Assembly: GCA_964500725.1 (NCBI GenBank)
Contig: CAZCNP010000003.1
Location: 1-57,475 of the forward strand
Source of the DNA: an uncultured Gammaproteobacteria bacterium
GTDB taxonomy: Bacteria > Patescibacteriota > Microgenomatia > Daviesbacterales > UBA10151
Reading direction: 5' to 3'
Length of the DNA stretch: 57,475 nucleotides
Position numbers and translations under genes: made by a program. This document shows, one piece after another, positions 32,969 through 47,252 of this stretch. A model generated the notes under the pieces. The model searched no databases. It had not been told where the DNA came from and worked only from the letters and a program-made list of their open reading frames with translations. How positions within the stretch are numbered: position 1 is the stretch's first letter; each line of letters opens with the position of its first letter.

Positions 32969-34507
32969 ATGAAGAATTGTTATATCTATTTAAGAGTAAG
33001 TACAGACGAGCAAGCCAACGAAGGTTTCTCTTTAGATAACCAGAAACGCTCCTGTTCAGACTACGCCCAAATGTGTGGGTACCATATTAAGAGGGTATTT
33101 GAGGATGGCGGTAAAAGCGGTAGAACAACAGATAGACCAGCTTTTCAAGAGTTGTTAACCCTACTCCAAGAAAGCCCAGTAGATGCAGTTATTATTTATA
33201 AAATTGATAGATTTGCCAGAAATGTTGGGGATTTCTCCGGAATAAGGAAACAGTTTAAAAACATGGGCGTTAAGCTCCTCTCTGTATCCGAAAATGGTGA
33301 TGTGACCGAGGGTTTAATAGGAAATATCTTTGCTTCTGTTGCGGAGTGGGAGTCAGAGGTAAATGGACAAAGGACTAAGGATGCTTTAATGCAGAAATTT
33401 AGGGAAGGTTGGCAGCCAACCCCTCCTCCACTTGGCTATATAAGCATTGGCGGAGATCGAGAGAGAAAAACTTGTGAACCGGATCCATATGTAGCATCTA
33501 TTGTCAAGGAAATGTTCGAGATTTATGCTACAGGGAATTATTCAATCCTAGAACTCCAAGAATGGCTCAGTAATAAAAATTTGGTTTCTAAATCAGGGAC
33601 AGGACTCGGACATAGCGTAATCTGCAATATTCTAAATAACCCTTTCTACTACGGTCTAATACGCTGGAAGGGTGAGTCAAAGATAGGAAAACATATCCCC
33701 ATTATTACTAGGGATTTGTTTGAAACCTGCCAGTATGTTTTAGCAAAGCACAGAAACTTTTTAATGAGACGCAGAGTCCACGATTTCCTTCTTAGAGGGT
33801 TTATCTATTGTGGTGAGTGTGGTCAAAGATATACCGCTGAATGGCATGTAGATGCGGTAAAACTTAAGAAACGAGGCGGAAAGATAGGATATTACCATTG
33901 CAAGAAATTAGGCAGAAACGGCTGTCCTGCCCCGTATGTGGAGCTAGCAGACTTAGAAAACCAAACTATGGAAGAATTTAAAAAAATGCAATTTAGCCAA
34001 GAATTTATAGATGCTGTGGTCCGCAAAACTAAGGAACGCTTAGAAAACACCCGCAAAACCGCAGCTTCTTTAAAACAAGGCATGATAAACCAAAAAACAG
34101 CTTTTGAAGCTAAAAGAAGCAAGCTTGAAGATGCTTTATTAGATGCGACTATAGACCGAGATACATTTAAAAGAAAACACTCAGAAATTCAGGATAAAAT
34201 CCTCAATCTAGAGGCTCAAATACAGGAGATTGATGCTGAGAGCCAGATAGATATTGAGCTTATTGATGAAGTTCTAGCTTTTACTAGGAATATTTATCAA
34301 ACTTACTCTGAAGCCCCAGATTTTCTAAAAAGGCACTACCTCAGGTTCTTTTATGAAAAGATAATTGTAAGAAATAAAGAGATTATAGAAGCAACGCCAA
34401 CTCCGATTTTCGCATCCCTGCTTGCTAATCAGCAGGTTATAATAACAGACTTGAGCTCCTCGACCTGGATTCGAACCAGGAACCTGCCGATTACATTTTA
34501 CCCTTAA
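32969..34507 (+). CDS. large serine recombinase
   Basis: YLRVST catalytic Ser, KIDRFAR, recombinase domain, CGECG zinc ribbon, coiled coil; 3' end runs antisense into tRNA-Asn. Confidence 0.95.
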   Translation: MKNCYIYLRVSTDEQANEGFSLDNQKRSCSDYAQMCGYHIKRVFEDGGKSGRTTDRPAFQELLTLLQESPVDAVIIYKIDRFARNVGDFSGIRKQFKNMGVKLLSVSENGDVTEGLIGNIFASVAEWESEVNGQRTKDALMQKFREGWQPTPPPLGYISIGGDRERKTCEPDPYVASIVKEMFEIYATGNYSILELQEWLSNKNLVSKSGTGLGHSVICNILNNPFYYGLIRWKGESKIGKHIPIITRDLFETCQYVLAKHRNFLMRRRVHDFLLRGFIYCGECGQRYTAEWHVDAVKLKKRGGKIGYYHCKKLGRNGCPAPYVELADLENQTMEEFKKMQFSQEFIDAVVRKTKERLENTRKTAASLKQGMINQKTAFEAKRSKLEDALLDATIDRDTFKRKHSEIQDKILNLEAQIQEIDAESQIDIELIDEVLAFTRNIYQTYSEAPDFLKRHYLRFFYEKIIVRNKEIIEATPTPIFASLLANQQVIITDLSSSTWIRTRNLPITFYP

Positions 34508-34760
34508 TTTACATCAAGGAATGGACTATCTCTTCACCATAAACTTGATTCTGGACAAGCCAGAACGACATATTTTTAGGTGTGGGGCGCTAATTGGTGT
34601 ACTCACCTAGTCTCTGCACCTTCCCCCCGCCTTTGGCAGGGGTCTTGGCTCAGGATTACCTCTAAAAGGGTTTCCTGAATTCACCCCATTCTCATTCTTA
34701 GCTTTTGCCAAGAAGCTGCATTTTCTACAGTCGGACGCTCTACCGTTGAGCTATCGAGGA
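34456..34760 (-). tRNA. tRNA-Asn(GTT) split by a group I intron (exons 34727-34760 and 34456-34493)
   Basis: Joined exons form a 72-nt cloverleaf, TCCTCGA/TCGAGGA acceptor, loop CTGTTAA; CCA not encoded. Confidence 0.9.
34494..34726 (-). ncRNA. group I intron (IC3-like), 233 nt, between anticodon positions 35 and 36
   Basis: Exon-terminal U; terminal G; IGS GCAG pairs CUGU; AATTCAGGAAAC, AATCCTGAGCC, GCAGAGACTAG and AAGAGATAGTCC core. Confidence 0.9.
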
Positions 34761-34763
34761 ATA

Positions 34764-35459
34764 TTAAAGTACGTCAGCTATTTTACCACCCAATAAAGCC
34801 GAAATCCATCCTATTATTTTTCTTTGCTTATCACTATCGCTAAAACGAATCGCAAAAACACCATACTGGTGGATATTCTTTCTAATTTTCTTGCTGTCTT
34901 TTTTATCTTTTGCTATGTAGGTTTTATGAAATTGCTCTTCAGGAATACCAGTAAGCTTTGACCAATATTGTTTGGCAACTATATCATCCAGGCCTTGATG
35001 TATCCAAATTGCTCCTCTTAATTTTGTCATTGGCAAACGGCAAAATTCCTGGAACCATTTACTCATAAACTTAATTAAAATAGGATCCGAATTTACAAAT
35101 CCACCCTTTCCGTCATTTTTAAAACCTTCTCCCGAGTAAAGAGCTACCCCAGCTATGAAGCGATCTCTTTTTGATAATTTACCTAACTCTTTTTTCGCAT
35201 CCTTAAAAATAACCCTTGTTCTTGCTAATCTTGCCCTTCTTTTATTATCAGCTGCTACAATCGAACCCTTTCTTTGCCCAAACATTTTATTCTCCAGAAG
35301 CTGTCTTTTTTGATCTTGTGTGAGCTTGATATCCCGACACCATCTGCTAACAGTATCTTTTGAAACATGAATTTGCTGCATTATTTTACCGTAAGACAAA
35401 CCTTTTTTACGTAGCGATTGAGCTTTAAACTTTTCCTCTAGCTTACCTACATACCCCAT
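34764..35459 (-). CDS. HTH plus LAGLIDADG-like protein, tRNA-adjacent
   Basis: N-terminal HTH (GLSYGKI...VSKDTVSRW); ALYSGEG.K...FVNSDP; stops 3 nt before tRNA-Asn. Confidence 0.6.
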   Translation of the reverse strand: MGYVGKLEEKFKAQSLRKKGLSYGKIMQQIHVSKDTVSRWCRDIKLTQDQKRQLLENKMFGQRKGSIVAADNKRRARLARTRVIFKDAKKELGKLSKRDRFIAGVALYSGEGFKNDGKGGFVNSDPILIKFMSKWFQEFCRLPMTKLRGAIWIHQGLDDIVAKQYWSKLTGIPEEQFHKTYIAKDKKDSKKIRKNIHQYGVFAIRFSDSDKQRKIIGWISALLGGKIADVL

Positions 35460-35563
35460 ATTTACATTATCAAATTAGGACTAAGTATTGTCAAGTATTT
35501 ATTACTAGAGATGGTAATACGATTTGAAATATAATAAATTTTATCACCTATCCTGTCCATATC

Positions 35564-35603
35564 TAGATTGCTTCTCCCGACTAAAGTCGGGATCGCAAGG
35601 ACA
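35564..35603. repeat. REP-like palindromic element
   Basis: GATTGCTTC-TCCCGACTAAAGTCGGGA-TCGCAAGGAC hairpin. Confidence 0.45.
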
Positions 35604-35636
35604 AAAGGAGAGGATTTGCTTTTTTAAACAGAAAAG

Positions 35637-36728
35637 CTATTCTAGATAATCCCGAAGTTTTTTTGCTCTGGTGGGATGTTTTAATTTTCTAATAGCTTTG
35701 GCTTCAATTTGTCTAATTCTTTCTCTAGTAACTCCAAATTCTTTGCCTACTTCTTCTAATGTTCTTTGTTTACCATCTTCTAGACCAAACCTGAGCTGTA
35801 ATACTCTTTTTTCTCTAGGAGAGAGACTATCCAGCACCTCATCTAAATGAATCTTTAAAAGCTCTCTTGTAGCCTGCTCATCTGGCTGCAAGCCTTGGTC
35901 AGCAATAAAATCCCCTAAATGAGAATCTTCCTCATCTCCAACAGGAGTTTCCAAAGAAGTAGGCTCTTGGGAAACTTTAATAATTTCCCTGGCTTTACTT
36001 TCATCAATCCCTAAAGCTTTGGCTACTTCTTCTGGGGCAGGTTCTCTGCCTAGCTCCTGCATTAACCTTCTTTGAGTTCTATTGAATCTATTGATAGTTT
36101 CTACCATATGAACAGGAATTCTAATAGTTCTTGCCTGATCAGCAATTGCCCTGGTGATAGCTTGCCTGATCCACCAAGTGGCATAAGTGGAAAATTTATA
36201 ACCCCTTCTCCAGTCATATTTGTCTACTGCTCTCATCAAACCAATATTCCCCTCTTCAATTAAATCGAGCAAGCTCATTCCTCTTCCTACATACTTTTTG
36301 GCTATAGAGACAACTAAACGCAAGTTAGCGCTAATCAATTTATCTCTAGAGGGTTGATCATTTTTTTCTGCTTTTTTGGCAAGCTCAATTTCATCTTGGG
36401 CTGTTAGAAGTGGGATCTTACCAATATCACGAAGATATTGTCTAACAGGATCTGTAACAGAACCTCCCTCTAAAGTAGTTAAAACCTCTAATTCTTTTTC
36501 CAAATCGGAAGGAGATTTAGTTTCAGCTTCCAGCTCTTCTGCTGTGCTTTCAAATACATCAATACTGGCATCAATTAATTGAATATAAAACTCATCCAAA
36601 GCTGGGATTACTTCTTCTGGTTTAGGGAAAATCTGTAAAATTTCCTCTTGGGTAACAAAGCCTCTGTCTTTACCTAATTTAAGAAGCTTTTTAATATCTA
36701 GTGTTGTTTGTTTTCTTTGTTTAGCCAT
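35637..36728 (-). CDS. rpoD: RNA polymerase sigma factor RpoD
   Basis: [39 protein letters not shown]. Confidence 0.98.
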
Positions 36729-36730
36729 AT

Positions 36731-38506
36731 TTAAAGATTTTTAAGCTTGACTGACAGATCCCTAAAGCGCTTGTTTAAAGACTCTACAACATCCATCTTA
36801 TCAAATTCCTGGGCATTCTTAATCTCCAAGGTTAGTTTTTGCAAAGAAGCTTTAATTAAAGCCTTCTTAAGCTCTGAGACTACCCCCTCCAATTCCTTCT
36901 GCCAGAATTTATTGTCACTTAGTTTACTATCAAGTTCAGTTAAATACAACCTATCTACTTCAACAGTCAATTCTTTAGGCAAACCTTCCACAAATTCATT
37001 AATCTCAAATGCCCTGCTTTTAAAAGAAATTGAGTCCAAATAAATCACTAGCAAAACATATATTTGTCTCCATTTTTCTGCCAAAAATAACGTTTCAGGA
37101 AAGGTGGGCACAAAGTTAAAATCTTTAGGCAAATGCAAAAGTAAGGCAATCAAATACTCCTCCAGCAGCTCTCTTCTGGATTTAGAAGGCACTACATTAT
37201 CTTTGGCGCTGGCTGTTTTTAACACATTGGTATAGCTTTGCAATTTGGTGTTGCGTTCTTTGTCCACCGCACTTCGGATAATCTTTTCATCTGATTTTAA
37301 GTAAGCTGATAGCCTCTGGATATAGCGCTCTCTTACTAAATCATCAGTAATTTTGGCCCAAACAGGGATTAACTCTTCTCCGATTCTTTTCAAATCAGCA
37401 GGATTTTTGGTGTCATATCTTTTAGCTGTTGAAGTAAGGTAATAATCATAAATAGGCACAGACTCTTCTATGGCCTTTTGCCAGAGTGAAGGATTTTCAG
37501 AAACTGCCTCAGCTGCATCTTTACCGCCTGAAAGTTGAACCACTTTAATATTTAACCCAGCTTTATCTGCTATTTCAATACCTCTTCTGCAAGCGCTGTC
37601 CCCTGCCAAATCCATATCAAAGGCCAAGGAGATATTATCTGTGTATTTTGTAATCAAATCAATTTGCCCTTCAGTCAAAGCAGTTCCTTTTGAAGCCACA
37701 ATATTTTTAAAACCTGCCTGGAAAGACATAATCATATCCATCTCTCCTTCTACCAAAATTGCTTCTTTTTTATTCCTGATTTCTCCTTTGGCTAAATTTA
37801 AACCAAAGAGCAAGTTTCCTTTATCAAAAATGGGGGTTTGAGGGGTGTTGATATATTTTGGTTCAGCAGGGTATAACACTCTGCCTGAAAAACCCCTGAG
37901 TTTTCCTTTACCATCAATTAAAGGATAAGTAATTCTGCCTCGGAAACGGTCATAACTGCCAGATTTTGAAGCCACTCCTAAACCTGATTGAATAATTTCT
38001 TGATGGCTAAAACCTCTTTTGAGCAAAAATTTAGTCAAAGATTCCCAGGAATTAGGAGCATAACCAATTCCAAATTCTTCTATTGAGCTTGAAGTTAATC
38101 CCCTATTTTTTAGGTATTCCAAGGCTTTTTTGCCTAAAGAATGAGTGGTTAAAATATAATGGAAAAATTCCTGGGCTTTTAAATTAATTTCAAACAACCT
38201 ACTAGTAAAATCTTTTTTATCAGGAGCCTGTTTTAAAACAATTCCAGCTTTGCTAGCCAACATCTCCAAGGCTTCTTTAAAATCTACCCCTTCTTTTTCA
38301 ATTAAAAAAGTAAAAACATCACCTGATTTAGAACATCCAAAACACTTAAAAATCTGTCTTTCTGGAGAGATTACAAAAGAGGGAGTTTTTTCATTATGAA
38401 AGGGACAATTGGCTTTAAAATTTACACCACTCTTTTTTACTGGGAGATACTCGGAGATCAAATCTACAATATTTATTTTCTCTTTGATAAGTTCAATGTC
38501 GTCCAT
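36731..38506 (-). CDS. dnaG: DNA primase
   Basis: CPFH zinc finger, FKCFGC, YINTPQT, VEGEMD, DMDLAG TOPRIM. Confidence 0.98.
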
Positions 38507-38613
38507 ATTTGTAATAGTTATCTAATCGTCCGCCTCTGGCGAGACCATTGGAAACTATCGGGCCAATTCTACACCAAAAAAACCCAAAAAACAAGGCTAG
38601 AGTATAAATAATA

Positions 38614-38781
38614 TTATTTAGCTACTGTAATAGGTTTACTAGAGAGTTTGAGATTAGGAAACCGAACACCTCTTGCTGCTTTAGAATAATCTACATATTC
38701 TGTGGAATCATGAGTTTGCCAAAACTCCCGTTCTTCTTTCTCGCTTCTAAACTTAGGGATCGTTTTTAATTTCTTCTTCAT
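38614..38781 (-). pseudogene. truncated CopG/BrnA-like antitoxin
   Basis: MKKKLKTIPKFRSEKEEREFWQTHDSTEYVD...KPITVAK stops at start of RHH; no toxin partner. Confidence 0.65.
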
Positions 38782-38806
38782 ACAACTTTTCGTTGTTTTT
38801 ACTAAT

Positions 38807-38896
38807 TGGCGGTGGGAGAGGGATTCGAACCCTCGGTAGACTTACGCCCACACGATCTTTCCAGGATCGCCGGTTAAACCACTCCCGAATCCCACC
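38807..38896 (-). tRNA. tRNA-Ser(GGA)
   Basis: GGTGGGA acceptor, CTGGAAA loop, long variable arm, GCCA end. Confidence 0.95.
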
Positions 38897-39924
38897 TTCG
38901 TCCTTAATCTATGCGTTTTTTGGTTTAAATAATAATTAAATTTTTTCCAATTTTTTGGATTATGCGATCCAATCAATTTAAAGTATTTTTTAATTTCCTC
39001 AAAACTATAAATATAAATCTGCGTTTCTTTCTTTGCAAAGGAAAATTTTAATCCTAGTGATTTTAACACTTTTGCTACAGATTGAACAATTGGAAGAGAT
39101 TTGTTTGTAAAACACATCCCAAAATTTTTATAAATCAAACCATTCGCTTTATGCTTATGAAAATAACAACCGCCATCCGTGTCCATCAGACCTCGCACAC
39201 AAGCTTTTTGAAATTCCGTTCTCTTCCATATCCATTGGGGAAAATCAATCTGGTGCCTAACTTTATTCCCTCTCACAAAACCCCATTTTTCTAGTTCTTC
39301 AACCAAATTAACCCCAGAAATTGTTAGATCAATTGCATTACAATTATTGCGCTCATGCGAACTTGGCCTGCAATCAAAAACCCTCTCAAACAAGGAAGAA
39401 ACAGCTAAGGAATATTCTTTATCCACTAGACTACTTAAACTAATTCTAAGTTGATTGTTAGAGATTGCTCCATCTCCTAAGATTATTCCAGCTACTTCTG
39501 CAAAATCCACTGAAGGGTTAACGACTTTAAATTTATTGCGAGTATTACACCCTAGTAGTCGATATTTTTCTGGATTTTCTTTTCTTCTGAGTTGAGAGTT
39601 CTTACCACCTTTACTCCTACCTTCAATAGTCCCAGGCGGGCCATAAAGTTCTAGTCTTTTTAGGGCTCCCCTCCTAGCTCCTTTTACTGTATACCAATAA
39701 TCATTTACTATTTGTATATTCGTGGGAGTTTCTAGATTGAAATGCTTGGCTAGAATTGATAAAGCTTTTTCAGAAATATGATACTTTCCTCTTAACCAAT
39801 CCCTCATCGTACGTCCAGATACCTGGCATAACGAGCCTAATTGATTACTGTTTAATTTTGATGATAATTTAACTTCTCTTAGGAAATGTGTTTGCTCTGA
39901 ACCCTGGAAGATAACTCTACCCAT
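38842..39924 (-). CDS. LAGLIDADG homing endonuclease-like protein with N-terminal HTH
   Basis: VAGIILGDG and VRGLMDTDG motifs; 3' end overlaps tRNA-Ser by 55 nt. Confidence 0.88.
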   Translation of the reverse strand: MGRVIFQGSEQTHFLREVKLSSKLNSNQLGSLCQVSGRTMRDWLRGKYHISEKALSILAKHFNLETPTNIQIVNDYWYTVKGARRGALKRLELYGPPGTIEGRSKGGKNSQLRRKENPEKYRLLGCNTRNKFKVVNPSVDFAEVAGIILGDGAISNNQLRISLSSLVDKEYSLAVSSLFERVFDCRPSSHERNNCNAIDLTISGVNLVEELEKWGFVRGNKVRHQIDFPQWIWKRTEFQKACVRGLMDTDGGCYFHKHKANGLIYKNFGMCFTNKSLPIVQSVAKVLKSLGLKFSFAKKETQIYIYSFEEIKKYFKLIGSHNPKNWKKFNYYLNQKTHRLRTKVGFGSGLTGDPGKIVWA

Positions 39925-40044
39925 AATTCTACATTAACCGAATAAAATGCGAAAGTCAAGATCTAATTAAGCAGATCTTTTTGAAAAACGTTCCAACGTG
40001 CCTTGACCCCGATCCCGATATAATCGGGACAGGTTAAATCAGGG

Positions 40045-40082
40045 TTGACAGGAAATAGGTATTACTATAAAATTGGTAATAC
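40045..40082 (+). promoter_or_regulatory. sigma70 promoter and operator of AbrB-VapC pair
   Basis: TTGACA-N17-TAAAAT; GTATTAC-N10-GTAATAC palindrome. Confidence 0.75.
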
Positions 40083-40083
40083 T

Positions 40084-40380
40084 ATGTTACAGATTCAACC
40101 TACTACTGTTACCCGAAAGGGGCAAGTAACTATCCCTGCGCCTGTCAGAAAAGCTTTGGGCCTTAGACCCGGCGATCAGATAGATTTTAGAATCACCGGC
40201 AAAACCAAAGCTGAAATAAAACCTAAAAAAAAGTTTTCCATTATGTCACTTTATGGCTCTTTAAAACCAAAAGTTAAACCTAAACTAACAGGCCAAGAGT
40301 TAATTAAATGGGAGGAACAAGCCTGGCCGAAAGCAGCAGCAGAACATGACAGAAAAATATTGAGATCAGCACAAAAATGA
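40084..40380 (+). CDS. AbrB/MazE-family antitoxin
   Basis: VTRKGQVTIPAPVRKALGLRPGD. Confidence 0.9.
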   Translation: MLQIQPTTVTRKGQVTIPAPVRKALGLRPGDQIDFRITGKTKAEIKPKKKFSIMSLYGSLKPKVKPKLTGQELIKWEEQAWPKAAAEHDRKILRSAQK

Positions 40381-40778
40381 TTTTAATAGATACAAATATT
40401 ATTTTACGTTTTATTTTAAATGATAGCCCTGCTTTATCCTCTAAAGCTCAAAGAATTTTTGAAAAGATAACAAATGGCAAAATCCAAGTTTTTATCAGTT
40501 TATTAACAATTTCTGAAATCATATTTACCTTGGAACGATCCTACAAAATTCCCAAAAATGATATTATCAAAAGTTTATCCAATATGTTTTTAATAACCAA
40601 TTTGAAAGTAGAAAAAAGGGTTCTAATAGAACAAGCACTAAGTATTTATGTAGAGAAAAATATTAGTTTTCCGGATGCCTATCATGTAGTATTTATGAAC
40701 TTTAAACAGATTAAACAAATTTATTCTTTTGATGAGGATTTTGATAAATTTCCTCAAATTAAAAGGCTTAGTGTATAA
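40377..40778 (+). CDS. VapC PIN-domain toxin
   Basis: LIDTNII, SEI, DAYH, SFDEDF. Confidence 0.9.
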   Translation: MILIDTNIILRFILNDSPALSSKAQRIFEKITNGKIQVFISLLTISEIIFTLERSYKIPKNDIIKSLSNMFLITNLKVEKRVLIEQALSIYVEKNISFPDAYHVVFMNFKQIKQIYSFDEDFDKFPQIKRLSV

Positions 40779-40786
40779 TAACCTTA

Positions 40787-41035
40787 ATGTTTAATAATTT
40801 TAAACTTCCAGATTTAGGGGCAGGAATTTTTGTGCTGATTTTATGGGAAGTTTTATGGAAAGGAATTGGACTGTGGAAGTCTGCCAAAAAAGGAGATCTG
40901 GTTTGGTTTATAGCTATCTTTTTAATTAACTTTTTTGGAATTATCCCTATTTTTTACCTTTGGAGAACTAAGCAACTGGAAACTGTAATAGAAGATGCCC
41001 AAAAGCTTGTTAAATCAAAGTTTAAGAAGCAATAA
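40787..41035 (+). CDS. DUF5652-like membrane protein
   Basis: WEVLWKGIGLWKSAK....WF.....N.FGI.P. Confidence 0.75.
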   Translation: MFNNFKLPDLGAGIFVLILWEVLWKGIGLWKSAKKGDLVWFIAIFLINFFGIIPIFYLWRTKQLETVIEDAQKLVKSKFKKQ

Positions 41036-41587
41036 ATACTCCTGATTTCCCCCACCCCCTAAAATTGGTGATTCAATACAATTTACAATGTACAATTTAC
41101 AATGTACAATTTTTTCAAGCACTTGATTTTTAACCTGCTCAGCTTTTTCAAGAGGTAGAACTCCTTTAACTAAATCTTTTTTGCTGGCTTCATAATGGGG
41201 CTTGAGCAATGCAATAATTAACCCTTCTGGCTTTAGGAATTTTTTAACAATAGGTAAAATAAGTTCTAATTTAGTCCAACCAGCATCAATGGTTATTAGA
41301 TCCACCTGGGAGGAGTCAAAGCCCACCTCCCAGGTGTTTTTAAACAAAATATTTGTTCTTTCCATTACTACTACTCGAGGATCATTCCGCAGTTTCCAAG
41401 CCAACTCCCCATAGGCTGTATCCAAGGCATATACCTTTTTTGCCCCATTTTGCAGCAGGGAGTCTACAAATCCACCAGTTGAGGAACCTACATCTAAAAC
41501 GACGTAATTTTTAATTTCTAATTTAAAATTTTTAATAGCGGCTTCAAGTTTTTCCCCACCCCTGGAAATAAATTTAACACTTGACAT
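41015..41587 (-). CDS. tlyA: TlyA-family RNA methyltransferase lacking S4 domain
   Basis: FISRGGEKL, LDVGSSTGGF, LLKPHYE, SPILGGGGNQEYL. Confidence 0.8.
   Translation of the reverse strand: MSSVKFISRGGEKLEAAIKNFKLEIKNYVVLDVGSSTGGFVDSLLQNGAKKVYALDTAYGELAWKLRNDPRVVVMERTNILFKNTWEVGFDSSQVDLITIDAGWTKLELILPIVKKFLKPEGLIIALLKPHYEASKKDLVKGVLPLEKAEQVKNQVLEKIVHCKLYIVNCIESPILGGGGNQEYLLLLKL
41077..41111 (+). repeat. heptamer tandem repeat TACAAT(T/G) x5 inside tlyA
   Basis: Encodes IVHCKLYIVNC on minus strand. Confidence 0.8.
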
Positions 41588-41984
41588 ACATTTCTACAGC
41601 TTTTTTTAAAAGCTCCTTATCGCGTGAATAAGACAATTGCTTTAAAGCATCTTCTGGGGCAAACCATCCAATATCACTAACTTCCCAGTCATGATCTGCT
41701 ATGTTGCCAGAAAGATATTTCATTAAAAAATAAGTTACTATCTTAAAGATTTTTTCCCCATTTAAAGAATATATATACTTTGAATAACCAACTTTATCTA
41801 TAATTTCAGCCTCTATTCCTCCCTCTTCTTTTACTTCCCTTAAAGCTGACTGCTCTGTTGTTTGCTCAGGATGATCCAGCAAACCTTTGGGAAAAGACCA
41901 GTGTTTATTTTGAGAGTGTTGGGTAACTAACACTTGGCCTTTGTCGTTAAAAACTATCCCACCTGCGCTAAATTCTCTTTTCAT
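41574..41984 (-). CDS. NUDIX hydrolase
   Basis: FPKG...EQSALREVKEEGG Nudix box. Confidence 0.93.
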   Translation of the reverse strand: MKREFSAGGIVFNDKGQVLVTQHSQNKHWSFPKGLLDHPEQTTEQSALREVKEEGGIEAEIIDKVGYSKYIYSLNGEKIFKIVTYFLMKYLSGNIADHDWEVSDIGWFAPEDALKQLSYSRDKELLKKAVEMYVKC

Positions 41985-42233
41985 CTGTAAATATCTTTCC
42001 TATGATCTACATCTAGAATCATAATTATATTTTCTACCTCAAGATCAAAAACTACCCTATACACTCCTATCCTAAATCTATATTTGCCTATTTTTGAATT
42101 AGTCAAAACCTCTGCAAAGATAAGCGGATTGGGTAAGATAAAATTCAAGCTTTGCTACTATTCTTTTTTGAACATCAGGTGTAAGTTTCAGGAAACGTTT
42201 TTGCGTAGAGGCTTTAAATTTTACTTGAAACAT
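41981..42233 (-). pseudogene. RelE/ParE toxin, frameshifted
   Basis: MFQVKF...KRIVAKLE then frameshift to FAEVLTNSKIGKYRFRIGVYRVVF...DHRKDIYR; 253 nt. Confidence 0.8.
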
Positions 42234-42511
42234 TAAAGGCCAATTTGTTTTTTAACTTCTTCAAGAGTATAAGTTTTTTTATCAGCTCTGGATTTAGCAA
42301 TTCTTTTCAGGTAATTTTCAGAAGAGAGTGCTTCTAAATCTTCCAAGAAGGATTCCCAAACCTCATTAGGGACTAGCACTCCTAAGGGTTCATTGTTTCT
42401 CATTACCCTAACAAATTTACCATCTCTAGCAGCTTTTTTAAACACCTTTGTCAAACCTGCCTGAGCTTTCTGGATACTTGTAAAATCTTCATCTGCAATA
42501 AACTGCCTCAT
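42233..42511 (-). CDS. Phd/YefM-like antitoxin
   Basis: VMRNNEPLGVLV..E.W....EDLE; TAATG coupling to RelE. Confidence 0.8.
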   Translation of the reverse strand: MRQFIADEDFTSIQKAQAGLTKVFKKAARDGKFVRVMRNNEPLGVLVPNEVWESFLEDLEALSSENYLKRIAKSRADKKTYTLEEVKKQIGL

Positions 42512-42626
42512 AATATAATAATTATTACAGAATTATGACAGCTTGTCAAGTATAAATCTGTGCCCTTGGCGAGTACTTAACAAGTAAGCATAGTATCCTT
42601 TTGGATACTATGAGCAAACCTGCTAG

Positions 42627-42714
42627 CGGAGGCGGTAGGATTCGAACCTACGCGAGCCTTTCGGCCCCCAGGGTTTTCGAAACCCGGCTAATAAACCACT
42701 CTAAGCACGCCTCC
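42627..42714 (-). tRNA. tRNA-Ser(CGA)
   Basis: GGAGGCG acceptor, TTCGAAA loop, long variable arm. Confidence 0.93.
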
Positions 42715-42720
42715 TCTAAG

Positions 42721-42792
42721 CGCCCCTGGCGGGAATCGAACCCACAATACGAGATCCGCAATCTCGAGGTTTATCCGTTAGCCTACAGGGAC
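42721..42792 (-). tRNA. tRNA-Arg(GCG)
   Basis: CGAGA-TTGCGGA-TCTCG anticodon arm; GGTTCGATTCC. Confidence 0.92.
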
Positions 42793-42847
42793 AATATGGG
42801 TATTTTAACAGAAATTTAGTCTGAAAGCTGAGGGCTATGACTGAAGA

Positions 42848-43438
42848 CTATCTATGGACGTTTTCAAGAGGAAAATGTTTTTGCAGAGATTCTGACCATT
42901 TTTCCATCCATGATTTATATGGAACTTCTACAAAGGGTAAAAATCTGGCTATAATTTTTGTGGTTTTTTCTTCACCTTGGTCTCCTAGAACCAACATTAG
43001 CTGAGCTGGAAAACGCAGTCTTGTTTGAATATGTAATACTTTTGATCCTTCTTTTTCTTTAAACCAAAAAGCATCCAGAAAATGCCAAAAGTAAAAATCC
43101 TCACCAATGGTAATCCCTTGGGTTGAAACTCTATATTTAATATTATGAGGAGGCACAAAGGCCAACACATAAGTCACAAAACCCAAAGATAAAAGTGTGC
43201 CAATCAGCAAAAAGTCTTTTAACCAGAAAAATACAATTAAAACTACCAATATAAGCAAAGTAGCAATTGTTGTGTAGTATGAACGGTCCTTTTTCCTAAA
43301 TGGGCGGGCTGGAGCCTCCCAGGAAAGCAGAGTTTTAATCTCTTCAGCTTCCATCATTTTAGGAGTAAAAAATTCAGGCGCTTCAGGCTTTTCCTGCTTA
43401 TTTTTGGGGGATAATTTTTGCTTTTCCTCTTTGAACAT
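42848..43438 (-). CDS. conserved membrane protein (two TMs plus PH-like domain)
   Basis: LLSWEAPARPF..., two TMs, FW...FW. Confidence 0.7.
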   Translation of the reverse strand: MFKEEKQKLSPKNKQEKPEAPEFFTPKMMEAEEIKTLLSWEAPARPFRKKDRSYYTTIATLLILVVLIVFFWLKDFLLIGTLLSLGFVTYVLAFVPPHNIKYRVSTQGITIGEDFYFWHFLDAFWFKEKEGSKVLHIQTRLRFPAQLMLVLGDQGEEKTTKIIARFLPFVEVPYKSWMEKWSESLQKHFPLENVHR

Positions 43439-43504
43439 TTACTTTTAGTTTAACACTAATTATAAACTTCCGCGGACTGAAAATCCACGGTCTTCTGCTA
43501 GTGA

Positions 43505-43846
43505 TTATAAATATTTCACAAACTGATTATTTTTATTTACTAATATAGCAACTGATTTTACAGGTTTGTCAGTTAACTCAAACCCCATGATAATGATTTC
43601 CTCACCTTTTTTAATTAAATGCGCTGCTGCCCCATTCATGCAAATAATGCCTGATCCGGCCTTGCCGACGATGATGTATGTTTCCAGACGCGCACCAGAA
43701 GTATTACTGACTACCAGCACTTTTTCGCCAGCCCAAAACCCCGCCTTTTCTACCAACTTCTCATCAATAGTAATGCTGCCGATATAACTTAAATCAGCTT
43801 CTGTAACTGTGGCTTTATGAATCTTAGAACGCAAAACAAATCTCAT
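43505..43846 (-). CDS. panD: aspartate 1-decarboxylase
   Basis: [15 protein letters not shown] cleavage site, RLETY, CMNGAAA. Confidence 0.95.
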
Positions 43847-43939
43847 ATTTTCATACCCATTTATACTACTATACTACGAATTATACTCTGTTCCAAAAAT
43901 GTTGTCTAAGCTTTGGTGATATGGTAATGTTGAATTATG

Positions 43940-44388
43940 GTTAGTAGGTTTATCCGGAAGAACTATTAGAGATTGGCGGAGGGAAAAATTTAAACCTACT
44001 AAGGAACATATTTTTAAGATGGGTCATTTAGCAAAAATAGTATTGCCCAAATATACAACCCCTATTACTGAACCTGTAGAATCAGTTGAATAGAAAGCAT
44101 AAAGTTTGCCGAGTTAGTGTTTCAAGTGTAAATTTGGTAAAATATCTTACCTCTAAAGGATTATCGTTAGGTAACAAAGTATGTTTACAAGTTGGTGTTC
44201 CTAATTGGATCTTATCTAAAGAGGATTATATAAAAGCTTGTATTAGGGGTTTAATAGATACTGATGGTTCTTTTGTATTACATAGGTATACAATTAAAGG
44301 GAAGATATATACATACCCAAAAATCTCTTTTAGTAATAGATCTGAACCATTACTAGAATTTGTTTATCAGGGGTTAAGAAGTATTTAG
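43940..44388 (+). pseudogene. degraded LAGLIDADG endonuclease gene
   Basis: Fragments GLSGRTIRDWRREK and IRGLIDTDGS...FSNRSEPLL, paralogous to 38842-39924; interrupted by stops; left boundary approximate. Confidence 0.78.
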
Positions 44389-44433
44389 AAATAGTTGGAG
44401 TAAGTAACTACAAACCTAATATAATAAAAATGG

Positions 44434-44519
44434 GGTGGGTTGCCCGAGAGGCTTAAGGGGGCAGTTCGCTAAACTGCTGGCGCGTAAGCGTCACACAGGT
44501 TCGAATCCTGTACCCACCG
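44434..44519 (+). tRNA. tRNA-Ser(GCT)
   Basis: GCAGT-TCGCTAA-ACTGC; long variable arm. Confidence 0.93.
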
Positions 44520-44524
44520 CTTAG

Positions 44525-44611
44525 GGAGAGGTCGCATAGAGGCCGAGTGCGGAAGTTTTGAAAACTTCTGCTGGCGCAAGTCAGCCGTGGGTTCGAATCC
44601 CACCCTCTCCG
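44525..44611 (+). tRNA. tRNA-Ser(TGA)
   Basis: GAAGT-TTTGAAA-ACTTC; long variable arm. Confidence 0.93.
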
Positions 44612-44619
44612 CAGCGTGA

Positions 44620-46831: not shown

Positions 46832-47252
46832 GGGGATGTATTGTCTCGACAGGATTGCTCTTTAAAAACTGCAAGCTGATAAGGAAACATTAATCATTAA
46901 ATATTGTTTCAAAACACAAACGGCAAAGATATTGCCCGTTACCTGAAGCAGGCAGCTGCTAAGATCGCAGGAGCTAATCCATTCGTGGGTCCGCAACTCG
47001 CTTTCCAACCAGCTTACAGCTAAAGGTTGCTTTAGAAAATGTTCTCCTTCTGACGGAACACTAAAGTACGTACAAAGTCAGGATGCTGCTGGTAAGGTGT
47101 TGGTTGATCCTTGCTAGTAAAAGACAATTCAATCATTCATTAGTTTTCCTGCTAATTGGTTACAACTATTGAATAAAAATTAATTAGCTAAGCTTGTAGA
47201 GGTTTAAAAAGTTACAATTTTGGACTCGGCTTCACCGCCGACATCTCCACCA
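46832..47252 (+). ncRNA. ssrA: tmRNA
   Basis: GGGGATG/CATCTCC-ACCA acceptor with G3-U; TCGAC; internal tag ORF 46922-47023; convergent smpB; TTGATT-N17-TAATAT promoter. Confidence 0.9.

Follow-up and report, generated by a model that had tools for sequence, protein, structure and literature searches.

Why should genes resembling those of LAGLIDADG homing endonucleases stand by themselves, outside any intron or intein, at the very 5' edge of transfer RNA (tRNA) genes? This question is raised by a stretch of 57,475 nucleotides (nt), hereafter the window (positions 1 to 57,475 of contig CAZCNP010000003.1, assembly GCA_964500725.1), which forms the first 57 kb of a 160-kb contig in a genome of 1.21 Mb and 15 contigs. 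Homologues of the window genes bear the names Daviesbacteria, Roizmanbacteria and Woesebacteria, i.e. lineages of the Patescibacteria or candidate phyla radiation (CPR), and the host of the genes is an ultra-small groundwater bacterium. Three open reading frames (ORFs) of this kind, ORF-A, ORF-B and the remains of ORF-C, are found in the window, and on the minus strand the gene order is ORF-B, tRNA-Ser(GGA), dnaG, rpoD, ORF-A and tRNA-Asn. A preliminary description of the window, made from the sequence alone, had singled out these neighbourhoods on the premise that homing endonucleases are normally intron- or intein-encoded. This premise was too narrow, as free-standing homing endonucleases are not unusual in phages (e.g. 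SegB of phage T4, PMC2330249). In our reading, which we hold to be probable, ORF-A, ORF-B and ORF-C are free-standing homing-endonuclease genes that target tRNA genes. They fall into two families, one combining a helix-turn-helix (HTH) with a single LAGLIDADG domain (ORF-A), the other an XRE-type HTH with two LAGLIDADG domains (ORF-B and ORF-C).

Placement next to a tRNA gene is a property of the families at large. Among 96 genomes of the same order, 72 of 89 ORF-A relatives have a same-strand tRNA that starts between -100 and +60 nt from their stop codon; the remainder consists of three with a tRNA 61-350 nt downstream, 12 members of a head-to-head branch and two unexplained cases. In a sample of 151 genomes from the phylum the ORF-A family is present in 27, and all of the placed loci (28/28) abut a same-strand tRNA. 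ORF-B relatives abut a tRNA in 16 of 29 cases, plus three in divergent orientation (96 genomes), and their partners are serine isoacceptor tRNAs or the Arg(GCG)-Ser(CGA) pair. Similarly, each ORF-A subfamily keeps to one tRNA, these being Asn, Thr-GGT, Arg-TCT, Arg-CCT, Met, Gln, Ile, Lys, Trp, Val-GAC and Gly. The background in this genome can be gauged from ORFs of at least 90 amino acids (aa) that end within -60 to +90 nt of a same-strand tRNA start, which are found at 12 of 41 tRNAs, so that roughly 1% of its genes (12 of an estimated 1,200) adjoin a tRNA in this way. Among those ORFs only three have their stop at +3 nt or inside the tRNA, and these are the endonuclease-like genes; ordinary genes of this genome stop 14-55 nt short of the tRNA. 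The enrichment next to tRNAs that the preliminary description had proposed as a test of its idea was thus found (about 81-100% of ORF-A family members versus about 1% of genes), and chance adjacency is excluded.

The junction itself is often shared. Many family ORFs take their stop codon from the tRNA, commonly the TAG of U8-A9-G10, which results in a 10-nt overlap. The head-to-head branch of the ORF-A family (33-36% identity; L031, L033-L035, L066, L068-L078) lies about 100-150 nt from an intron-bearing tRNA, for which ARAGORN gives tRNA-Leu(CAA) in two loci and Rfam a group I intron in ten further ones. The family is a large one, its profile being matched at E<=1e-10 by 2,860 clusters at 50% identity; close relatives of ORF-A are, among the matches listed, nearly all about 231 aa long and 61-90% identical.

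ORF-A itself (P0001; 34764..35459, minus strand; 231 aa) belongs to the Asn-type subfamily. Its stop codon TAA occupies 34766-34764, and tRNA-Asn(GTT) (34456..34760, minus strand) starts at 34760, 3 nt beyond and on the same strand. This tRNA is split after anticodon nucleotide 35 (after CTGT) by an ORF-less group I intron, to which Rfam RF00028 assigns 85 bits over 34502-34737, the limits read from the sequence being 34494-34726. Because the intron splits the anticodon, ARAGORN misses the gene in its default mode, and with introns allowed it reports Asn(gtt) i(35,233).

The nature of the ORF-A protein has to be read mainly from its predicted structure and its conserved residues. No Pfam family fits the ORF-A family, and ORF-A itself has no match to a Pfam LAGLIDADG model; sequence and profile searches of the PDB returned HTH matches only, and the NCBIfam search gave nothing useful. 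The AlphaFold model (mean pLDDT, the per-residue confidence measure, of 85) comprises an HTH at residues 7-41, a long helix of 45 residues (48-92) and a single alpha/beta domain (94-228), which carries the motif AGVALYSGEGFK. When this domain was compared by VIA-align with all cluster representatives, the best non-coil matches were all LAGLIDADG domains, with Z scores of 5.8-7.3: the TliVMA intein (Z 7.3, root-mean-square deviation (rmsd) 4.0, 83 residues aligned), I-DmoI (Z 6.9, rmsd 2.9, 81 aligned), WhiA (Z 6.4, rmsd 3.0, 88 aligned) and E-DreI (Z 6.3, rmsd 3.4, 85 aligned). A Foldseek search of the model against the PDB yielded nothing at E<=0.001, its sole row being I-DmoI (E about 0.08). 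The domain is therefore assigned to the LAGLIDADG fold as a prediction, which is built on the agreement among the matches and not on the height of their Z scores. The motif helix ends in ...YSGEG, i.e. an acidic residue followed by glycine as in LAGLIDADG enzymes, and in 111 full-length relatives (22-100% identity) the E-G-x-K signature is nearly invariant (E111 110/111, G112 110/111, K114 107/111), as is N123 (102/111). Residues 94-231 were moreover predicted as a homodimer with a score of 0.64, against 0.00 for the best of three controls; in this procedure 20 of 30 proteins whose solved structure is a pair of one chain attain the homodimer mark, compared with 1 of 23 whose solved structure is a single chain. 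At least 86% of the contacts are common to the runs, the partner pLDDT is at least 81, and the interface is formed by the motif helix (residues 95-111). Such a prediction shows likeness only, and may reflect memory of solved LAGLIDADG dimers.

ORF-B (P0002; 38842..39924, minus strand; 360 aa) is more readily classified, as its XRE-type HTH is followed by a double-motif LAGLIDADG domain that passes Pfam PF14528 (LAGLIDADG_3; 35.2 bits versus a cut-off of 22.5). The two motifs are LGDG (149-152) and DTDG (248-251), and 36 homologues show no variation at G150-D151-G152 or at D248-T249-D250-G251; when the PDB was searched by sequence and profile, only weak rows to inteins or I-Tsp061I came up. Most homologues end near residue 341, and those with a tail read into the tRNA. 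Indeed, the last 18 residues of ORF-B are translated tRNA-Ser(GGA) (38807..38896, minus strand), whose first 55 nt double as the last ORF-B codons and stop. With the stop lying inside the tRNA (38842-38896), cleavage by RNase P at tRNA position +1 would be expected to yield a message without a stop codon.

ORF-C (43941..44444, plus strand) is a pseudogene that belongs to the ORF-B family, within the branch linked to tRNA-Ser(GCT), and survives as three pieces in two frames. Compared with an intact copy of the same genus, 43941-44060 corresponds to aa 33-72 and 44092-44385 to aa 189-286 (69% identity), while the last piece, 44373-44444 (aa 306-330), runs into tRNA-Ser(GCT) (44434..44520, plus strand), which is followed by tRNA-Ser(TGA) at 44525-44612. 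About 116 residues, including the first motif, have been deleted. A frame of 100 aa (44086-44388, plus strand) that ends 45 nt before tRNA-Ser(GCT) represents only the middle of the pseudogene. Intact relatives of ORF-B abut the same pair of serine tRNAs in three other genomes (G050, G093, G088). Outside the window, a fourth member, the C1 paralog, was found (G000, contig C1:293096-293926, plus strand; locus L124:554-1384), a protein of 276 aa in which a zinc ribbon and an HTH accompany a LAGLIDADG-like C-terminal domain as in ORF-A, with the motif GLYWGESNK. It lies directly downstream of tRNA-Thr(TGT) and overlaps by 37 nt an intron-split tRNA-Thr(GGT) (C1:293890-294121), which is likewise missed by default ARAGORN. 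A union of ORF-A and ORF-B in one family was considered and is not claimed, the profile-profile alignment covering the N-terminal HTH only, at 11% probability.

The preliminary description had put ORF-A 3 nt before tRNA-Asn, had let ORF-B run into tRNA-Ser(GGA) and had placed a decayed paralog 45 nt before tRNA-Ser(GCT), each on the strand of its tRNA. All three placements hold, the first by agreement of the coordinates with the intron-aware tRNA call, the second as the 55-nt overlap and the third for the frame that is part of ORF-C. Its term 'LAGLIDADG-like' is borne out by Pfam for ORF-B; ORF-A has no Pfam match, and owes the name to fold and motif.

The cassettes appear to bring their own signals for expression and to leave those of the tRNA in place. 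Upstream of ORF-A, a strong promoter-like site (35466..35494, minus strand; TTGACA, 17 nt, GATAAT) matches at 11 of 12 positions, has the top score in a scan of 34300-40200 and ends with its -10 element 6 nt before the ATG. The position of this element suggests that the putative ORF-A mRNA is leaderless or nearly so. A comparably strong site precedes ORF-B (39931..39959, minus strand; TTGACT, 17 nt, TAATGT), again ending 6 nt before the ATG; it was read by eye, the automatic scan giving only an overlapping weaker site, and is conserved along with the orthologous cassette in G092. Leaderless translation is suggested for both ORFs by this spacing, which leaves no room for a Shine-Dalgarno sequence. 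An extended -10-like element, TGGTAAAAT (34780..34788, minus strand), lies within the last ORF-A codons, 19 nt before position +1 of tRNA-Asn, and is likely the tRNA's own promoter. The sequence TG(G/A)TAAAAT and the leader precede tRNA-Asn in alleles without ORF-A (G004, G047, G010) as well as in those with it, and a similar -10-like element precedes tRNA-Arg(TCT) of this genome. Inside ORF-B, a stretch of 25 nt with the extended -10-like TGTTAAAAT (39050..39074, minus strand) is found unchanged before tRNA-Ser(GGA) in the same-genus genome G090.

The distribution of these genes is patchy. Relatives of ORF-A occur in 56 of the 96 genomes and those of ORF-B in 23, with up to five copies per genome, and close orthologues of ORF-A are confined to about 12 of the 96. 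Most relatives, complete genomes included, lack such endonuclease-like genes. Within the genus only two of 18 genomes hold an ORF-A orthologue (73% identity), and other genera hold copies at 81-85%. RpoD, with 89-95% identity, is too flat for a test of discordance against the ORF.

Comparison of alleles with and without the gene, as the preliminary description had recommended, revealed shared flanks at tRNA-Arg(TCT), tRNA-Asn and tRNA-Ser(GGA). At tRNA-Arg(TCT), which has no such gene here, G088 carries an insertion of about 730 nt, flanked on one side by tRNA position +1 and on the other by the upstream gene, promoter included, that is found here too. In every relative rpoD precedes tRNA-Asn, whether an ORF lies between them or not, and a contig from a 2017 groundwater run, which may derive from a related organism, joins 34764 to 35521 via 24 other letters and thus represents an ORF-A-less form from a community of the same kind. 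At tRNA-Ser(GGA), G090 is 100% identical over 92 nt and has lost the 1.1-kb ORF-B cassette save for the 25-mer of 39050-39074, which persists at 100% identity in a 48-nt spacer before the tRNA. Since this 25-mer is internal to ORF-B, the G090 allele is a deletion derivative.

Further traces of gain and loss are found close to the tRNAs. Relics of the ORF-A 3' end precede tRNA-Asn in four genomes (G067, G026, G090, G025), and at about 10 of 145 loci a partial copy of the tRNA 5' half precedes the ORF by 28-190 nt, the better-supported ones stopping by position 36. In G024 the stub is made up of a relic of the ORF 3' end, the promoter and the 5' exon, and it breaks off precisely at CTGT, where the intron inserts. 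In G092 the ORF-B orthologue is in antisense orientation, flanked on one side by the full tRNA and on the other by a tRNA-Ser stub of 18 nt in reverse. The suggestion of the preliminary description that these are selfish genes homing to tRNA 5' flanks is supported in its first part, as patchiness, occupied and empty alleles, decay, stubs and similarity that seems at odds with taxonomy all speak for selfish, mobile genes; the flank as the site of cleavage is less well supported, since the stubs suggest a cut inside the tRNA gene. As a separate observation, two loci of the same genus (L011 in G081 and L130 in G074) carry a GC-rich insert of about 110-130 nt (GGTCCTGCACGAAGTGCGG...GGGAGTCTAAATGACTCCC...) with hairpin-like repeats between the ORF or leader and tRNA-Asn.

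Domain make-up, motif conservation, tRNA-specific placement, patchiness, alleles with and without the gene, relics and stubs are thus direct evidence, from which we infer cleavage, target site, immunity and route of transfer as follows. The enzyme, acting as a homodimer in the case of ORF-A and as a monomer in that of ORF-B, would cut a gene-less tRNA allele at or inside the tRNA gene, and, judging from the stubs, the cut would fall in the 5' half, no further in than the anticodon loop. Repair of the break from the gene-carrying allele would copy the cassette of promoter, ORF and tRNA. The tRNA would still be made because the ORF ends at or inside it, either by read-through or from the promoter embedded in the ORF 3' end (34780-34788; 39050-39074). 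Copies would later decay or be deleted, which would leave the site open to re-invasion. In tRNA-Asn the ORF-less group I intron, located at the suspected cut, may shield the carrier and travel along, as in collaborative homing.

Several observations weigh against this reading. The Z scores of the ORF-A fold are only middling. The mature tRNA-Ser(GGA) is identical in alleles with and without ORF-B, and the anticodon arm of tRNA-Arg(TCT) in the gene-less allele of this genome equals that of three gene-carrying alleles, so that a target wholly inside the mature tRNA would be cut in carriers too, unless it spans the junction. Indeed, no 'immunity' variant was found in gene-carrying tRNA-Arg(TCT) alleles, whose anticodon arms vary; self-immunity might be provided by a site that spans the 5' junction, or by an HTH that needs an upstream anchor displaced by the insertion. 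The best allele lacking ORF-B, that of G090, is a deletion derivative and not a never-occupied site, and gain by homing is therefore not directly seen. No tRNA stub was detected upstream of ORF-A, ORF-B, ORF-C or the C1 paralog here, where scores remain at shuffle level. Moreover, 111 of 117 extracted copies are full length and strongly conserved in sequence, which a host function would fit too, and vertical descent with frequent loss could yield the patchiness.

For ORF-A a more specific proposal, compatible with homing to tRNA genes in general, deserves to be weighed, and we regard it as an open possibility to which we incline somewhat less than to its alternatives. ORF-A would cut intron-less tRNA-Asn at the anticodon loop, and the intron, by splitting the site, would protect its carrier and be co-converted, whether or not the ORF goes with it. 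Each of the 12 close orthologues from the order (12/12), as well as the relic in G067, adjoins an intron-bearing tRNA, and among about 38 scored tRNA-Asn alleles 12 have intron and ORF, 15-19 the intron only and at least seven neither, while none has the ORF only. The break of the G024 stub at the exact insertion site agrees with this proposal, and the predicted single-domain homodimer would suit a near-palindromic anticodon arm. The tRNA-Asn gene with its intron is 92% identical to that of G004, a genome of another genus without the ORF, whereas the rpoD DNA next to it reaches 76%, and introns from the same genus are about 70-77% identical to the one studied here; a recent move of the intron segment, not in every case together with the ORF, is therefore likely. 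ORF-A itself is nearest to the copy in G058 (85%), and such differing nearest relatives of intron and ORF are what conversion tracts ending within the 34-nt 5' exon would produce. Against the proposal stand the 15-19 intron-bearing alleles without the ORF, the Asn-type copies of other lineages that lie beside an intron-less tRNA-Asn (L138 and L139, 48% and 37% identity), the relic in G025, which is likewise next to an intron-less tRNA, and the strength of the 12/12 association, which at p of about 0.05 is not decisive even with relatedness ignored. Most branches of the family have no intron at all. The idea of the preliminary description that the endonucleases mobilise a neighbouring intron in trans thus fits the data at this tRNA and fails as a general rule, most members being located at intron-less tRNAs; the intron link is plausible for ORF-A and is not the basis of the family's lifestyle.

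In run X4, a groundwater contig of high depth replaces the intron (window 34485-34736) by 17 letters that complete a plain Asn anticodon loop, so that these aquifer samples also contain tRNA-Asn alleles from related organisms in which the intron is lacking. Introns of this type have been catalogued by the thousands in bacterial tRNAs by Williams 2020, where partners are not discussed (10.1101/2020.01.27.920355), and one genome paper mentions CPR tRNA introns in passing only.

A different and, in our estimate, improbable explanation is that the ORFs have been domesticated as non-cutting DNA-binding proteins which, like WhiA, regulate or mark the tRNA behind them. WhiA, a conserved core gene, has two degenerate domains without catalytic residues and a C-terminal HTH. 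Like WhiA, which is among the fold matches of ORF-A (Z 6.4), the proteins studied here combine a LAGLIDADG fold with an HTH, their length and sequence are highly conserved with few broken copies, and promoter-like elements for the tRNA lie inside the ORFs. Unlike WhiA, however, they keep the motif residues, the acidic one and its neighbours being almost invariant, their HTH is N-terminal, and their genes are patchy (56/96 and 23/96 genomes), being absent from most relatives even where the genome is complete. Stubs, relics and insertion polymorphism, finally, are hallmarks of mobile DNA.

Still less credible is a role as maturases that aid the splicing of a group I intron in the neighbouring tRNA. 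LAGLIDADG maturases do exist in organelles, and both ORF-A and the C1 paralog adjoin intron-bearing tRNAs, but the tRNAs next to most family members are intron-less, no intron is located near ORF-B or ORF-C, and many intron-bearing tRNA-Asn genes have no such ORF. Least of all can the ORFs be taken for chance neighbours or for cargo of an integrative island at the 3' end of tRNA-Asn, for although an element with a serine recombinase abuts that end, ORF-A lies on the other side of the tRNA, and the arrangement is repeated across more than 80 genomes and at more than 12 different tRNAs.

The large serine recombinase gene of this element (32969-34507, plus strand; Resolvase, Recombinase and Zn_ribbon_recom domains) runs convergently to tRNA-Asn, with an overlap of about 50 nt at the 3' end of the tRNA, so that the integrated element occupies the side of the tRNA opposite to ORF-A. 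Elsewhere in the window, the pair tRNA-Arg(GCG)/tRNA-Ser(CGA) (42626..42792, minus strand), which relatives of ORF-B precede in other genomes, is unoccupied, and an ORF upstream of it (42848-43438) gave no LAGLIDADG signal in the Pfam scan. A tmRNA gene is located at 46832-47252.

The reading of these ORFs as free-standing homing endonucleases can be set beside several known systems. SegB of phage T4, a free-standing homing endonuclease of the GIY-YIG family, is encoded in the T4 tRNA gene cluster and recognises a site that contains a conserved tRNA T-loop motif (PMC2330249). Like the genes studied here it stands among tRNA genes, and it is absent from related genomes and carries neighbouring tRNA genes along (PMC2330249). 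Unlike this phage enzyme, the genes described here appear from their sequences to encode LAGLIDADG proteins with an HTH in bacterial chromosomes, each is fixed to the 5' end of one tRNA, with which it often shares the first nucleotides, and they form many tRNA-specific subfamilies across the phylum. Collaborative or trans homing is exemplified by F-CphI with the ORF-less psbA intron of cyanophage S-PM2 and by T4 mobE with I-TevIII (PMC6083498, PMC2790892). In these accounts, too, a free-standing endonuclease gene adjoins a gene with an ORF-less or defunct group I intron, and the shared idea is that of an intron which splits the target and moves together with the endonuclease; those systems involve phage protein-coding genes and other nuclease families, whereas here the host is a tRNA and the intron link is not obligatory.

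With homodimers of the I-CreI type, I-DmoI and the intein-type LAGLIDADG_3 proteins, our candidates share the fold matches, the acidic residue and glycine of the motif helix and the predicted helix-helix dimer. They differ by an extra N-terminal HTH, which in ORF-A is linked by the 45-residue helix, and in not being intron- or intein-encoded, and the ORF-A family, unlike the known LAGLIDADG types, has no Pfam model. Within the CPR, LAGLIDADG genes have been reported inside ribosomal RNA (rRNA) insertion sequences and introns (PMC11270868). Phylum, nuclease superfamily and the choice of highly conserved RNA genes as targets are the same; those genes, however, sit inside the insertions, and the paper does not contain the terms 'tRNA', 'free-standing' or 'helix-turn-helix' (PMC11270868). 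No description of tRNA-abutting LAGLIDADG-HTH families of bacterial chromosomes was found in the papers searched, a coverage of the literature that is incomplete. Free-standing homing endonucleases and collaborative homing are, as kinds of element, already known.

A wider picture can be drawn, which we offer as speculation and consider less likely than not. A phylum-wide guild of tRNA-specific endonucleases would cut tRNA genes, some of them near the anticodon loop, and would thereby drive the horizontal exchange of tRNAs and of 'endonuclease-less' introns among Patescibacteria. The tRNA promoter inside the ORF would explain why relics are kept after loss of the gene, and a stop codon inside the tRNA, together with RNase P, would produce a non-stop message and so cap the dose of the nuclease via tmRNA.

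If the reading as homing endonucleases is true, a free-standing partner before the tRNA would provide a testable route of spread for tRNA introns that have been catalogued as lacking mobility genes. It would also mean that homing endonucleases need neither intron nor intein to endure in the chromosomes of cellular bacteria, where they would attach themselves to the most conserved short genes available, and that there is an added source of tRNA-gene exchange between otherwise very divergent lineages. Finally, judged by its sequences, the large family may be a source of numerous natural LAGLIDADG scaffolds that bring an additional HTH module and whose targets in tRNA genes can be predicted.

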